The notes under the pieces are model-generated. The model was not told where the DNA came from and made no database searches. It saw nothing but the letters and a program-made list of their open reading frames with translations. DNA of 5,370 bases from a virus (Duplodnaviria; Heunggongvirae; Uroviricota; Caudoviricetes): the IMG/VR virus record IMGVR_UViG_2703718775_000030. One strand, 5' to 3'. This document shows positions 1 through 2,880 of the stretch, piece after piece; within the stretch, counting starts at the first letter, position 1; every line of letters begins with the position of its first letter. Position numbers and translations under genes: made by a program.

Positions 1-1398
1 TTACAGCGGGCGCACGTCATCACCGTCAATAACGATTACGCCATCATTTTCCAGCTTGTACAGCCAGCGCCGGAAGTGCTTCATCTCATACCCCAGCTTT
101 TTCATATCGTCGCGGAGAAGGGCGATAGTGCACGCCTCCCCGTGTGCTGTTCGTGTTCTGATGCACTGCCATAGCGCGGCGTGATTCTCCGTCTTGTTCC
201 CTGCCTCCTCGATGCGCTCCAGTTCAACGGGAGGGCGCGGCTTATCCACCACCACCAGCGACGTGATTAACTCCCCGTCAGCGTCGGTAAAAAGCTCCAC
301 CACGCGTAAGTCATATGCGGCTTCTTTGAGTTCCTCCGCGTCCTTCATTTTGGTGCATGAGATAACCAGCGCTTCGCTTCCTGCGTCCTCCCTGCGTATC
401 CGGTATTCAGCATCCAGCGAAGCACGAAATGCACTGGAACCGCGCGCGCCTTTCGTCTCATCCTTGCCGGAATGGTGAACCACCAGCACCGTGGCCCCTG
501 TGCGTCGTTTCAGTTCGTCACACCCACGGATAAACGTCCCCATATCACGGGAGTCATTTTCATCATTGCCGCCAAAGCAGCGCGCCAGCGTATCCAGAAT
601 AATCATTCGAACAGGTTTACCCGTTTCCCGCTCCACCTGACGGGCAGCGATAACCATTTCATCAACATCAAGCGGGGCAGCCGGAAAGATGGGACGGTTT
701 ACAAGGTAAAGATTTTTCACCTGCTCACCGTGCACAACCTCCCAGGCTTTTACACGACGCGGAACGCCGATACCGCCTTCACCAACCACATAGAGAACAG
801 CGCCATGCGCCACCCTGCGGCCTCCCCACTGGCGGCCCGTGGAAACGTGACACGCCCACGAACCCGCAAGGAACGATTTATAGGAACCGCTCGCCCCGTA
901 TATGCTGCAAAGCGATACCGCCGGAATAATCCCCTTAACCACGTAATCCAGTTGCGTGTCATATCCGGCAGAACCAACGCTCATCGGTAGCTTTGTTTTG
1001 CGCTGGTGGCCTTTTTCTTCCTGCTTTTCCCCGCGCTCCCGTTCCAGATATTCGCGCCAGTTCTCCCGCTTCTGGCTGTGCATCCCATCGGGGTAGTAAT
1101 TCGCATCCTGTACACCTGCCGCTGCCAGCTTGTGCGCAATGGCATTAATATTTGATGGCCTGATGTGGCCTGCCTTGTACAGCCGGACACAATAGCGCCC
1201 CTCGTCGATGATTCTCAGGTCTGCCAGTTCATCCAGTTGATCATCAGCCAGCACAACGGGAGGCACATTATCGCCAGCCAGTCGCCCGTCCTGTTCCTGC
1301 CACTGTTTCGCATGTGCCCAGGCATCACTACCCGCAAAAATAATGACTTCGGTCATCTTGTCGTAAGGCTGTTTTTTTAAGTTCGGTGCGCTTTTCAT
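1..1398 (-). CDS. Replication protein, 465 aa: N-terminal domain of uncertain identity (toprim-like pattern) fused to a RecA/DnaB-fold P-loop ATPase (RepA-like helicase class)
   Basis: Complete ORF with stop at 1..3 and ATG at 1396..1398. Walker A-like GASGSYKS, Walker B-like RMIILD and an LVVHHSGK motif are typical of RepA/DnaB-type helicases. The start overlaps the upstream stop as ATGA, and AGGGG lies 7 nt upstream. Alternative internal start at MTEVIIF has no SD. Confidence 0.85.
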   Translation of the reverse strand: MKSAPNLKKQPYDKMTEVIIFAGSDAWAHAKQWQEQDGRLAGDNVPPVVLADDQLDELADLRIIDEGRYCVRLYKAGHIRPSNINAIAHKLAAAGVQDANYYPDGMHSQKRENWREYLERERGEKQEEKGHQRKTKLPMSVGSAGYDTQLDYVVKGIIPAVSLCSIYGASGSYKSFLAGSWACHVSTGRQWGGRRVAHGAVLYVVGEGGIGVPRRVKAWEVVHGEQVKNLYLVNRPIFPAAPLDVDEMVIAARQVERETGKPVRMIILDTLARCFGGNDENDSRDMGTFIRGCDELKRRTGATVLVVHHSGKDETKGARGSSAFRASLDAEYRIRREDAGSEALVISCTKMKDAEELKEAAYDLRVVELFTDADGELITSLVVVDKPRPPVELERIEEAGNKTENHAALWQCIRTRTAHGEACTIALLRDDMKKLGYEMKHFRRWLYKLENDGVIVIDGDDVRPL

Positions 1399-1532
1399 TT
1401 CTTGCCCCTGAATCCGTTAATCATGGTTTTCAGCTTCTGGATGTTTGCCCGTGCCCTGGCGTTGCTGGTGGGCACGTTATGCGGCGCGGTCTGTACCAGA
1501 GAAAAATCACGCCGGAACTGATAAACAGGCAT
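1395..1532 (-). CDS. Hypothetical small basic protein (45 aa, MPVYQFRRDF...NGFRGKK); may instead be the C-terminal part of the upstream gene if the N run is mis-sized
   Basis: The frame is open from the N run down to a TGA that overlaps the replication-protein ATG (ATGA). Its ATG at 1530..1532 overlaps the stop of the 74-aa ORF (TGATG). No SD, so translation would depend on coupling. Confidence 0.3.
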   Translation of the reverse strand: MPVYQFRRDFSLVQTAPHNVPTSNARARANIQKLKTMINGFRGKK

Positions 1533-1756
1533 CACGCAATCATATTCGTAACCTTCACGGCGGTANNNNNNNNNNNNNNNNNNNTTATTACAGGCTCAAG
1601 AAGCGTTATTAATGCCGTGACAATTCTTGATTTTTGTTTGTCGCGTTCATTGTCGCCAAGTGTTTCAAGCCATATGCGCAATATTTCGTACATACCTTCA
1701 GCGTAAGCAAGGGCACTAAATGCGCGGTCTATTGTTTCGTGGTAAATATCACGCAT
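1532..1756 (-). CDS. Hypothetical protein (74 aa as written, contains 7 unknown residues from the N run)
   Basis: ATG at 1754..1756 lies 1 nt after the stop of the upstream gene (TAAtATG). The ORF crosses the N run at 1566..1584, so its C-terminus and true length are uncertain. Confidence 0.5.
   Translation of the reverse strand: MRDIYHETIDRAFSALAYAEGMYEILRIWLETLGDNERDKQKSRIVTALITLLEPVIXXXXXXXTAVKVTNMIA
1566..1584. other. Run of 19 ambiguous bases (N): masked sequence or assembly gap
   Basis: Directly visible in the sequence. Confidence 0.99.
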
Positions 1757-1757
1757 A

Positions 1758-1979
1758 TTAATCCCCGTCCGTTGTTTTTCTTAAAACAGCTTCTGTCACG
1801 AAATCAGCATAGTTAGCGGCAATATCAAGAATATTTAGCCCTGTATCTCTGTGCTCATCAGTGCAAAGAAAGAAAAAAGCCACCCGCATAATTTCAGATA
1901 TTGACGAAAGCGCATCAGCCGCATCATCAGGAACGCCGGAAAATTCTTGTTTCAGGGAATTAAAACGATCATCACGCAT
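1758..1979 (-). CDS. Hypothetical small protein B (73 aa, MRDDRFNSLKQEF...), apparent paralog of the upstream gene A
   Basis: Start chosen at ATG 1977..1979, which overlaps the stop of gene A (ATGCGTGA, 8-nt overlap). Shares the motif PD(A/D)AA(A/D)AL(S/T)(S/T) with A. The ORF-track start at 2027 is less likely. Confidence 0.6.
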   Translation of the reverse strand: MRDDRFNSLKQEFSGVPDDAADALSSISEIMRVAFFFLCTDEHRDTGLNILDIAANYADFVTEAVLRKTTDGD

Positions 1980-2193
1980 AACCCCCCCCATTTTCACAAT
2001 CAGCAACAAGAATATTTTTAGCGTCATTCAGCGACCGCGTTGCGATGTATCGGATACATTCCAGGGCGAACTGTGTCCGGTCTTTCTGTTCTTCTCCCTG
2101 CGCAAGCTCTGCAGTGCATTCAATATCGATAAGCGCGTGCATCAGCGTAGTGAGCGCGGCGGCTGCTGCGTCCGGTGTGGTTTTATTGCACAT
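1972..2193 (-). CDS. Hypothetical small protein A (73 aa, MCNKTTPDAAAAALTTLMHALIDIE...)
   Basis: ATG at 2191..2193 is preceded by AGGAGG with a 6-nt spacer. It overlaps the end of the upstream E/D reading frame by 11 nt. The ORF-track start at 2235 lacks an SD. Confidence 0.65.
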   Translation of the reverse strand: MCNKTTPDAAAAALTTLMHALIDIECTAELAQGEEQKDRTQFALECIRYIATRSLNDAKNILVADCENGGGYA

Positions 2194-2374
2194 GGCACAC
2201 CTCCTGACGAATACGGGCGGCGAATACAGCAACACAACCGGACGGGCAACGGCTACGCGCTTCGCGTTCCGTCCAGGCGGTTACGTGGATGATTTGATGT
2301 TCTGACGCGCCAAAGATGATAAAGCGCCAGAGAAAGGCGGTTTGAGAATGTACAAGGGTAGGGATAGTAGCCAT
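2183..2374 (-). CDS. Hypothetical protein D (63 aa, MATIPTLVHSQTAFLWRF...): in-frame internal start inside E with its own strong SD, possible separate short product
   Basis: ATG at 2372..2374 is preceded by AGGAGG with an 8-nt spacer. Its N-terminus repeats the E N-terminal motif IPxLVHxQTAFxWRF, with synonymous codon differences between the two copies. Confidence 0.5.
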   Translation of the reverse strand: MATIPTLVHSQTAFLWRFIIFGASEHQIIHVTAWTEREARSRCPSGCVAVFAARIRQEVCHVQ

Positions 2375-2743
2375 GTTGGCAGCCTCCTCAGTGTGGTTAA
2401 GATAACCGCCACCGGAAACGCCAATTTCGCTGGTGGCGGACTGTACAGGGTTGGCGTAACCGGACACTGAAGAAACCGGCGCGGATTGCTCCGCCCCCGT
2501 ACAGCCCACCATTGATAAGGTGTGACTATGCGGCACAAAAAAACACGCGGGGCGCGTGTTATGCGCTTCAGTTTTGCCCAGGACGCCAATCCCGGCACCC
2601 GTTTTATGAGGTGCGCGGGAATCATAGCTATTTTCGACACTGGCGATCAACTGGTTTTTTTCTCCGATATTCAGGGCCAGAAAACGCCACACAAAGGCCG
2701 TTTGTGTGTGTACAAGGTGTGGTATATGATTTACGGCAACCAT
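2183..2743 (-). CDS. Hypothetical protein E (186 aa, MVAVNHIPHLVHTQTAFVWRF...), contains an internal duplicated module
   Basis: ATG at 2741..2743 is preceded by AGGAG with a 5-nt spacer. The frame runs without a stop to TAA at 2183..2185. The N-terminal ~50 aa are paralogous to the C-terminal module that begins at the internal ATG 2374. Confidence 0.6.
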   Translation of the reverse strand: MVAVNHIPHLVHTQTAFVWRFLALNIGEKNQLIASVENSYDSRAPHKTGAGIGVLGKTEAHNTRPACFFVPHSHTLSMVGCTGAEQSAPVSSVSGYANPVQSATSEIGVSGGGYLNHTEEAANMATIPTLVHSQTAFLWRFIIFGASEHQIIHVTAWTEREARSRCPSGCVAVFAARIRQEVCHVQ

Positions 2744-2772
2744 AACGGCTCCTAGTTTACGTTGTTGGTTAG

Positions 2773-2806
2773 ACGCCCCGTATGTGTTCCCAGCACTGCG
2801 GGGCGT
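2773..2806. promoter_or_regulatory. GC-rich stem-loop (8-bp stem, 18-nt loop) in the leader of the minus-strand operon; followed by a T-rich tract on the plus strand
   Basis: Perfect inverted repeat CGCCCCG (2774..2780) / CGGGGCG (2799..2805), extendable by an A-T pair at 2773/2806. TGATTTTTGTGT follows on the plus strand. Confidence 0.45.
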
Positions 2807-2833
2807 TGATTTTTGTGTAATGGCAAGTACAAT
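2806..2833 (+). promoter_or_regulatory. Candidate sigma70 promoter for the RHH gene: TTGATT, 16-bp spacer, TACAAT
   Basis: Hexamers read from the sequence. The predicted transcription start falls inside the first palindrome. Confidence 0.35.
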
Positions 2834-2845
2834 GGTAATTACCAT
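2832..2845. promoter_or_regulatory. Operator-like perfect 14-bp palindrome ATGGTAATTACCAT (O1)
   Basis: The sequence equals its own reverse complement. A second near-identical copy lies 30 bp downstream. Confidence 0.6.
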
Positions 2846-2851
2846 GTAGGT

Positions 2852-2880
2852 ATAGTAATGAAGGGTAATTACCATGTCAA
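2852..2880 (-). promoter_or_regulatory. Candidate sigma70 promoter on the minus strand reading into the replication operon: TTGACA (2880..2875), 17-bp spacer, TACTAT (2857..2852)
   Basis: Consensus -35 hexamer and a good -10 at optimal spacing. O2 lies within the spacer and O1 at the predicted transcription start. Confidence 0.55.
2862..2875. promoter_or_regulatory. Operator-like palindrome copy AGGGTAATTACCAT (O2, 13 of 14 positions symmetric), overlapping the RHH gene start codon
   Basis: Exact 14-mer GGTAATTACCATGT occurs at 2834..2847 and 2864..2877. Confidence 0.55.

Follow-up and report, generated by a model that had tools for sequence, protein, structure and literature searches.

A putative P4/P1-type RNA immunity cassette nested in the first gene of a phage satellite replication operon

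How is a replication operon held silent, and how is it switched on, when its first gene also carries what appear to be the parts of an antisense RNA immunity system? This question is raised by a 5,370-nucleotide stretch of caudoviricete DNA (IMG/VR virus record IMGVR_UViG_2703718775_000030; the whole stretch is called the window below). In the list of its open reading frames (ORFs), an unbroken row runs along the minus strand from 2743 down to 1 and ends in the gene for a RepA-family replication helicase. An initial annotation described this row as a single tightly coupled operon, transcribed from one switch promoter at 2852-2880, probably gated by a repressor and free of terminators and obvious internal promoters between 2743 and 1; it named an internal start site or terminator as the observation that would speak against this picture. 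The analysis presented here upholds the operon and arrives at a different view of its control. The window probably contains a satellite replication operon with a P4/P1-type RNA immunity cassette nested in frame in the first gene, on a backbone that, judged by its gene content, appears to be that of a capsid-forming small phage satellite akin to the phage-inducible chromosomal islands (PICIs). Since the RNA elements lie inside the first gene, most of the control over the small proteins and the helicase is probably exerted once transcription has begun, and not by a promoter-bound repressor alone.

The minus strand between 2743 and 1 contains predicted elements of both kinds that had been thought absent. 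A hairpin followed by a T-run (2560-2542) and a promoter-like site (2650..2621) coincide with the two ends of a match to the Rfam isrK family, and an internal terminator and start site are hence predicted within the row. From 2537 down to 1, a consensus scan found no further minus-strand promoter- or terminator-like site, and for that part the earlier description holds. The isrK match is full length, as is a second Rfam match, to the C4 antisense RNA family (model positions 1-87 of 87; RF01695 belongs to clan CL00128), and both lie within the first ORF on the minus strand (Table 1). A weak match to c4-a1b1 at 2575-2627 scored 21 bits against a gathering score of 46.7. The minimum free energy (MFE) fold of the C4 RNA agrees with the Rfam model and exposes two sites, a variable hairpin loop (UUUCUUCAGUGU, 2464-2475) and the constant single-stranded ACGCCAA (2451-2457). 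The 261-nt leader folds well beyond its shuffles (z = -4.4), and its MFE fold pairs the upstream target of the C4 RNA in cis with the C4 loops. The position of the inner -10 element is conserved in relatives, and this promoter-like site draws its support from comparison with P4 rather than from the consensus match by itself. The presence and identity of the RNA elements, as predicted by the family models, are much more certain than the overall mechanism.

Table 1. Predicted features of the operon region in the window, with counterparts found by the same tools in the P4 genome. SD, Shine-Dalgarno sequence; aa, amino acids; dots in the strand column, no strand assigned.
Feature	Window position	Strand	Details	P4 counterpart
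Divergent putative Arc / YlcI-YnfO-like DNA-binding protein	2874..3047	+	57 aa; ATG inside second palindrome	
Outer promoter-like site (the initial 'switch promoter')	2852..2880	-	TTGACA, 17 nt, TACTAT; 10/12 consensus matches	
Two palindrome copies GGTAATTACC(AT), putative operators	2832..2876	.	Centres 30 bp apart; direct-repeat family D1	
GC-rich hairpin in 5' leader, between outer promoter and long ORF start	2773..2806	-	Pair I3, 8-nt arms, 100% complementary	
Long ORF, eta-like (the initial 'E/D')	2183..2743	-	186 aa; own SD GGAG 2749-2752	
Inner promoter-like site	2621..2650	-	TTGATC, 18 nt, TATGAT; ends 7 nt before isrK match	8728..8699, TTGCCT-18-TATAGT
isrK / P4 seqA-like leader RNA	2537..2614	-	Rfam RF01394, match 2538-2614, 66 bits vs gathering 50, E 5.8e-13	8692-8615
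Intrinsic terminator of isrK-like RNA	2537-2560	-	Hairpin of 8 pairs 2542-2560, U-run to 2537	Hairpin plus T-run 8635-8621
C4 / P4 CI-type antisense RNA	2429..2516	-	Rfam RF01695, 77.6 bits vs gathering 45, E 1.6e-14	8507-8420
Second target pair	2383..2424	-	TTGGCGT 2418-2424 and ACACTGAGGAGG 2383-2394, containing nested gene SD GAGGAGG	
C-rich, G-poor stretch, possible Rho loading site	2270..2412	-	C/G ratio 1.7-2.3 in 78-nt windows; proxy only	C-rich, G-poor stretch 8414-8272
Nested Icd-like / P4 Kil-like gene	2183..2374	-	63 aa, in frame with long ORF (…EEAANMATIPTLVHSQ…)	
ORF A	1972..2193	-	73 aa; PHROG 5146 and 2512, function unknown; overlaps upstream stop by 11 nt	
ORF B	1758..1979	-	73 aa; PHROG 24341, function unknown; junction ATGCGTGA	
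ORF C, 5' part	1585..1756	-	77 aa in relatives; PHROG 2196; 3' end under N-run	
N-run, 19 N	1566..1584	.	In relatives: ORF C end, 5-nt gap, first 43 DUF4222 codons	
DUF4222 gene, 3' part	1395..1565	-	99 aa in relatives; stop overlaps RepA start (ATGA)	
RepA-family helicase, last gene of row	1..1398	-	465 aa; Pfam AAA_25, E 7.8e-43	

What would the exposed sites of the C4 RNA pair with? TTGGCGT, the complement of the constant ACGCCAA site, occurs twice, in the isrK part (2583-2589) and downstream (2418-2424), while the variable loop has an upstream target in ACTGAAG (2566-2572) and a downstream one that contains the Shine-Dalgarno (SD) sequence of the gene nested in the long ORF. Two predicted target pairs, the downstream one over a ribosome-binding site, are the arrangement by which the C4 RNA class is recognized. 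When the variable loop was compared with 245 windows of the operon transcript, its best duplex was with the SD of the nested gene (-15.0 kcal/mol; median -6.7), and the duplex of the loop with the SD of the long ORF was at background (-6.7). These values come from loop-only searches, which were used instead of an unrestricted duplex search of the C4 RNA against the leader; the latter neglects the RNA's own fold and was uninformative.

The same relation between loop and site is found outside the window. Among 80 loci with RepA relatives that were fetched from other Enterobacterales, 19 carry a C4-type RNA (20 copies), with eight different loop sequences including that of the window. All eight match their respective SD-adjacent sites, and none of the 40,320 permutations of loops and sites exceeds the summed length of the cognate matches, 68; two permutations reach it, because two of the classes are nearly identical. 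For the upstream sites, the observed value is reached by 24 of the 40,320 permutations. Such co-variation is the pattern expected of a working antisense system. A locus of Morganella morganii (L061) carries tandem C4 modules at 2608 and 3176, whose loops, TATCAATTGGAC and GATCCGTTGGGG, both match their own SD-adjacent sites.

Among the closest parallels for this region is the left-operon immunity region of phage P4, with promoters PLL and PLE, seqA, CI RNA, seqC, nested eta/kil genes and the Rho-dependent timm; the tools used on the window were applied likewise to the P4 genome (L082). The order of the elements and the 7-nt gap from the -10 element to the isrK match are equal in the two, and in both a terminator at the 3' end of the isrK match is followed by the C4/CI RNA and then by a target at the SD of a gene of about 65 aa. 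The C-rich, G-poor stretch of P4 lies at the equivalent relative place. The nesting is shared as well, such that the 65-aa kil gene of P4 is the in-frame end of a long ORF (…SQEAAIMATTLTPSH…), as the 63-aa gene is of the 186-aa ORF in the window, and in both genomes overlapping downstream genes lead to a replication gene. The long ORF of P4 has three adjacent Met codons, giving products of 199, 198 or 197 aa. Forti and co-workers in 1999 reportedly gave sizes of 65 aa for kil and 197-199 aa for eta, which agree with the P4 sequence; translation of kil or eta is said to prevent Rho-dependent termination at timm, and transcripts from the upstream promoter PLL reportedly escape immunity through the translation of eta. 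In structure, IsrK is homologous to P4 SeqA, and the CI RNA of P4 pairs with seqA and seqC, which leads to premature termination (PMC4825925).

The integrase of the window's island is 34% identical to P4 Int, and the long ORF matches the P4 eta ORF (BLASTP, 32% over 111 aa, E 1e-7). BLASTP of ORFs A, B and C, the DUF4222 protein, RepA, the divergent regulator and orf62 against all P4 proteins gave nothing significant, leaving Int and eta as the only matches, and annotation together with BLASTP against the P4 proteins revealed no homologs of epsilon, orf151, cnr, sid, delta or psu. Identification of the small ORFs with epsilon, orf151 or cnr was rejected for lack of a significant BLASTP match. 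Unlike P4, the window has no vis/alpA between the outer promoter and the long ORF and has a divergent small regulator with palindromic putative operators instead; its RepA-type helicase, for which BLASTP found no match to P4 alpha, is without the primase part of that protein; and the N-terminal part of its long ORF, unlike that of eta, is a duplicated Icd 5' end. Membership in the class of P4-like satellites was rejected on the gene set, as neither sid, psu or delta nor an alpha-type primase-helicase is annotated in the whole L001 island (the O26-type relative introduced below) or in the stretches fetched from relatives L083-L085, which end within late genes. Judged from these comparisons, only Int and the immunity leader resemble P4.

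From a start upstream of the inner promoter, the long ORF extends across the isrK and C4 regions, and its last part is the Icd/Kil-like gene. This nested gene matches the NCBIfam model phage_ICD_like (NF033153) with 57.1 bits against a cutoff of 25, from which its activity is only predicted, and it is named Icd-like in the RefSeq annotation of L001. The N-terminus of the nested gene has a duplicate at residues 7-45 of the long ORF (48% identity over 42 aa). The Pfam Phage_ASH match (PF10554) on the long ORF, at residues 40-133, corresponds to the translated RNA region (window 2344-2626, minus strand). In a census of P4-like satellites, PF10554 served as the marker for P4 epsilon (PMC8628076). 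The P4 epsilon gene is a separate gene downstream of the ORF that crosses C4.

Is the RNA region an inherent part of this satellite? A comparison with relatives of the same backbone indicates that it is not. The island of an O157:H7 strain (L084) is 98.1% identical to window 3400-2660, a stretch that includes the divergent regulator genes and the outer promoter as well as the leader hairpin and the ~28 initial codons of the long ORF; beyond it, L084 runs straight into a plain 65-aa Icd-like gene. Compared with L084, the window has an extra 363-nt in-frame unit, comprising the inner promoter, isrK and its terminator, C4, the second target, the SD and the kil 5' end, and bounded by the duplicated 5' part of the Icd gene. 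The rationale for regarding the cassette as a discrete 363-nt in-frame module is the presence in L084 of the same backbone with a plain Icd-like gene. Moreover, an Rfam search of the same-backbone relatives L083-L085 found neither C4 nor isrK, and for this reason the cassette is not a fixed part of the backbone. The one-promoter picture of the initial annotation thus fits L084, as far as its sequence tells, and not the window.

The packing of the row can now be considered. The co-directional arrangement that was described from about 2880 to 1 is real, gap-free on the minus strand and ends in the replication helicase, and four of the five stop/start junctions quoted for it are true gene junctions. 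These are the 11-nt overlap into ORF A (long ORF stop 2183-2185, ORF A ATG 2193), ATGCGTGA between ORFs A and B (1972-1979), TAAtATG between ORF B and the next gene (1754-1760) and the ATGA (1395-1398) that opens the 465-aa RepA-family gene. The fifth, TGATG at 1530-1534, is present as a string and represents internal Val-Met codons of the DUF4222 gene. The ORF that was supposed to end at 1532 crosses the run of 19 Ns at 1566-1584, in place of which the two nearest relatives have 196 nt; these are L001, an O26-type chromosome with 100% identity to window 1585-5370, and L083 (strain 12867), with 100% identity to window 1-1565. Both have the ATG at 1532 as codon 55 (…DCVMPVY…) within a 99-aa DUF4222 gene whose Pfam domain (residues 16-68) extends across the masked stretch, and the true junction between ORF C and the DUF4222 gene reads TAAaaataATG, with a 5-nt gap. 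Read against these relatives, the quoted junction is an artefact of the N mask, and the packing there is still tight. ORF calls made across the Ns, such as a 74-aa ORF at 1532-1756, are chimeras of two genes in different frames.

The overlaps of 4, 8 and 11 nt and the gaps of 1 and 5 nt recur in L001, L083, L084 and L085, and the pattern holds even in relatives with extra small genes. Two 8-nt overlaps are present in the left operon of P4. The packing is real, conserved and above chance but normal for phage and satellite operons, and by itself it is an ordinary finding. The RepA-family protein in which the row ends has PHROG matches to the helicase parts of primase-helicases. In L051, a P4-like relative, its homologue makes up the C-terminal half of a 688-aa P4-alpha-like primase-helicase.

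What of the promoter and the repressor at the head of the row? The outer promoter-like site, with a predicted start near 2845, is overlapped by palindromes (inverted pair I1, 12 nt, 100% complementary), one copy lying in the promoter spacer and the other at the predicted start, and it stands beside a divergent gene of DNA-binding type. To this extent the proposal of repressor-gated expression is supported; gating by a promoter-bound repressor alone is not. The best family match of the divergent 57-aa protein is an Arc-like repressor (PHROG 228, E 1.5e-6), with matches below cutoff to Pfam Arc (E 0.038) and NCBIfam YlcI_YnfO_N (E 0.0014), and a YlcI/YnfO gene occupies the equivalent position in L083 and L085; the gene of the 57-aa protein itself is without annotation in RefSeq relatives. 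A structure predicted without an alignment (pLDDT 68) has two helices after a disordered N-terminus. Foldseek of this model against the Protein Data Bank (PDB) gave no hit below E = 4.7, and a PDB sequence search returned designed helical repeats plus a weak match to AmrZ (E 0.47). The Arc-like fold of this protein is therefore regarded as putative. The region of the leader hairpin (2773-2806) is 85.7% identical in L083. On the plus strand this hairpin (ACGCCCCG…CGGGGCGT) is followed by a T-run, TTGATTTTT, and it could halt antisense transcription just ahead of a plus-strand promoter-like site at 2806-2833.

From the RNA elements and their geometry, the complementarity and co-variation of loops and sites, the nested ORF, the packing and the backbone with and without the cassette, a mechanism can be proposed that we consider more likely than not, and for which we infer RNA processing, the translation block, Rho termination, translational override and control of the outer promoter from P4 and P1. 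In the quiescent state, the inner promoter would make an untranslated leader, many copies of which would end at the intrinsic terminator to yield the isrK/seqA-like RNA, and transcripts that read through would be processed into the C4/CI-like RNA. Both single-stranded sites of this RNA would pair with the second target pair and mask the ribosome-binding site of the Icd/Kil-like gene. Without translation, Rho would probably load on the C-rich stretch and transcription would stop within the nested gene, such that the small genes and RepA, with little or no untranslated spacer among them, would remain silent. Upon induction, transcription would start at the outer promoter, probably under the divergent DNA-binding protein and/or AlpA, and ribosomes would initiate at the SD of the long ORF, which the C4 RNA does not match. 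These ribosomes would cross the terminator, the C4 region and the target, so that no termination would occur, and a single polycistronic mRNA would reach the helicase, with the abutting stop/start codons retaining ribosomes along the way. A wider reading is more tentative, and we put it forward as a possibility that we ourselves would not expect to hold in full: the cassette would be a portable in-frame unit, exchanged by recombination through the conserved Icd/Kil 5' codons among Icd-led satellites. Besides the control by protein, replication would then be governed by a further, specificity-coded layer that would also confer immunity between satellites, with the Arc/YlcI-like gene as the repressor of the class.

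Known systems show how far such a scheme departs from precedent. In the immI region of P1/P7 (a1/b1, c4, a2/b2, icd, ant1/2), the C4 fold lies between two target pairs, the second of them over the ribosome-binding site of an Icd-type gene, as in the window. P1 immI is controlled by both the C1 repressor and the C4 RNA (PMC8198154), a dual control by promoter-bound protein and antisense RNA from the same transcript to which the proposed scheme would be alike. Unlike P1/P7, the window has a replication module as cargo in place of an antirepressor, its weak c4-a1b1 match gives way to the better isrK match with a terminator, and its putative promoter-binding protein is of the 57-aa Arc/YlcI-like kind and not like C1. 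The isrK-orf45-anrP-isrJ region of the Salmonella prophage Gifsy-1 shares with the window an isrK RNA with its own terminator, a C4-like RNA downstream, which in Gifsy-1 is processed, and an ORF across the RNA region that is coupled to the next gene by overlapping stop/start codons (PMC4825925). In Gifsy-1 the short RNA activates translation of an antirepressor, whereas the window's cargo is replication genes, and unlike in Gifsy-1 the ORF across the RNA begins upstream of the inner promoter.

Gram-negative and capsid-forming PICIs of the EcCICFT073 and EcCIEDL933 type have in common with the window's relatives int, alpA, an Icd-like gene, small ORFs, DUF4222 and a replicase. Beyond the operon, relatives L083-L085 carry genes for SSB, PerC, the major capsid protein and a prohead protease or head decoration protein, a PICI gene set by which they resemble capsid-forming PICIs (bioRxiv 10.1101/2022.09.08.507074); the L001 island, which lies next to tRNA-Pro and yejM in E. 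coli, has only terS and the capsid gene. Descriptions of Gram-negative PICIs give unidirectional transcription, an AlpA activator and no clear repressor (PMC6092414). What sets the window apart from the published PICIs is its RNA cassette, together with a frameshifted alpA and a small divergent regulator. The Rfam C4 and isrK models are known to detect relatives of CI and seqA and match several Gram-negative PICIs (PMC10111431). Earlier publications already cover the RNA families, the mechanisms of P4 and P1 and the presence of C4/isrK matches in Gram-negative PICIs, and the window adds a further, uncharacterised case.

Could the window be explained without a working cassette, or with one that works in another way? 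According to the initial annotation, one promoter at 2852-2880 and a promoter-bound repressor would suffice, with no internal control and with the RNA matches as inert relics. The tight, conserved packing and the palindromes over the outer promoter agree with this, and L084 has precisely that layout without the cassette, so the backbone can work in such a manner. We nevertheless hold this explanation to be highly unlikely for the window, where both Rfam matches are full length and above gathering scores, the geometry of the terminator and the inner promoter-like site agrees with that of P4, and the perfect match of loop and target and the eight co-varying specificities are unexpected of relics. 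A second alternative accepts the RNAs and reverses their role. As in Gifsy-1, the isrK part would pair with the C4 region in cis, and the short RNA would open the structure in trans or titrate C4, making the cassette mainly a positive, threshold-setting device; this is compatible with the operon model favoured here. Such activation, with translational coupling via an AUGA overlap, is documented for Gifsy-1 (PMC4825925). In its favour are the 66-bit isrK match, the leader fold that pairs the upstream target with the C4 loops in cis and a conserved AUGG at the C4 5' end (2509-2512) that is in frame with the nested gene, like the first start codon of orf45. The AUG at 2512 has no SD, however, the strongest and co-varying pairing is that of the C4 loop with the nested SD, which is the repressive P1/P4 arrangement, and the cargo is a replication module as in P4 and not an antirepressor. 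We therefore judge it unlikely that activation of this kind is the main function.

A third alternative is that the element is decaying, a frozen recombinant of an Icd-led PICI operon and a P4-like immunity region without current replication control, in which the C4 RNA would at most act in trans on other elements. The alpA/vis-like gene (3427-3632, minus strand) has a 1-nt deletion, with seven A residues in a run that has eight in the E. coli Nissle allele (L085 1997-2203; T-run on the plus strand at 3588-3594 in the window). The Nissle allele is intact at 68 aa and otherwise 99% identical, and RefSeq calls the window's version frameshifted. A programmed -1 frameshift at the run was considered and set aside, since the Nissle allele has one more A and a plain homopolymer deletion is simpler; the shortening may reflect decay, phase variation or slippage. 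AlpA is required for induction of related islands (PMC6092414; bioRxiv 10.1101/2022.09.08.507074), and among P4-like elements, alpA copies with a frameshift are reported to be frequent and conserved (PMC8628076). Downstream, the L001 island has only genes for the small terminase subunit and the major capsid protein, beside a yejO pseudogene. Against decay, all ORFs from the long ORF through repA are intact, the 363-nt insertion keeps the frame exactly, the loop matches its target perfectly, and a variant at least 99% identical is present in more than 100 complete genomes, many of which may be clonal. Taken together, a decayed element seems quite unlikely.

Several observations nevertheless weigh against an RNA-gated operon. 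In the window, the upstream site matches the variable loop over no more than 7 nt. The outer and inner promoters are consensus matches only, of a class that is not enriched (6 promoter-like sites found in the window, 4.7 expected from shuffles). Consensus scans of the relatives L051 and L070 found the corresponding terminator absent or weak and did not find the promoter site. Seven of the eight loop classes have a long ORF that spans the RNA region (420-585 nt), and in the eighth, Citrobacter-type class the longest open frame is 303-435 nt; this openness could stem from conservation of the RNA and not from selection for translation. The long ORF across the RNA region is conserved, but its in-frame nesting is not universal. 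L051 and other P4-like relatives have, at the SD-proximal ATG behind C4, an ORF of only 22 aa (3278-3346) in another frame, and a 178-aa ORF (2979-3515) runs from the alpA stop (ATGA) across the promoter, isrK and C4 into the start of the primase-helicase. Finally, the island may be defective, given the alpA deletion and the short L001 copy.

Further observations concern the surroundings of the operon. In seven P4-like relatives (L045, L051, L060, L062, L066, L070 and L072), STAXI and EFASI motifs lie ~1-2 kb upstream of C4, upstream of alpA and the C4 region, and an Rfam search of the window found neither motif; Weinberg et al. 2010 had already seen STAXI in the neighbourhood of c4 RNAs (PMC2864571). 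Strong terminator-like hairpins at 3368-3400 (plus strand) and 3769-3792 (minus strand) follow, respectively, a 62-aa plus-strand gene (3090-3278, PHROG 21027) and an 83-aa minus-strand ORF (3800-4051) that adjoins the integrase, and they bound separate transcription units upstream of the operon. A 409-aa minus-strand ORF (2183-3412) is antisense to two plus-strand genes, those of the 57-aa (2874-3047) and 62-aa proteins. RefSeq gives pieces of it as 'Icd-like' and 'ash family' pseudogenes and leaves both plus-strand genes unannotated, and annotation of the 409-aa ORF looks like an artefact. Compared with complete E. coli genomes, the window is a mosaic: its part from 1585 to 5370 is 100% identical to O26 strains and its part from 1 to 1565 only 97%, and an exact match to both parts was found in none of the complete E. 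coli genomes of the collection.

E. coli very commonly carries satellites of this kind: 1,686 of 5,426 complete genomes match parts of the replication operon, and 1,033 match the RNA cassette region. The region is mis-annotated, with an 'ash family protein' or Icd-like pseudogenes on the wrong strand and the divergent regulator genes left out, and PF10554, the epsilon marker of the satellite census (PMC8628076), largely translates the RNA region in the window. The clean pair of backbones with and without an in-frame cassette, the divergent regulator with its putative operators and these annotation problems may be undescribed. The O26-type island with the cassette and the O157-type island without it form a natural pair. 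Work on Gram-negative PICIs centres on the AlpA activator and has not settled whether there is a repressor (PMC6092414). Should the cassette function as its P4 and P1 counterparts do, some of these islands would have their replication held off by a specificity-coded antisense RNA as well, which would bear on which satellites can coexist and on when they respond to helper phages.

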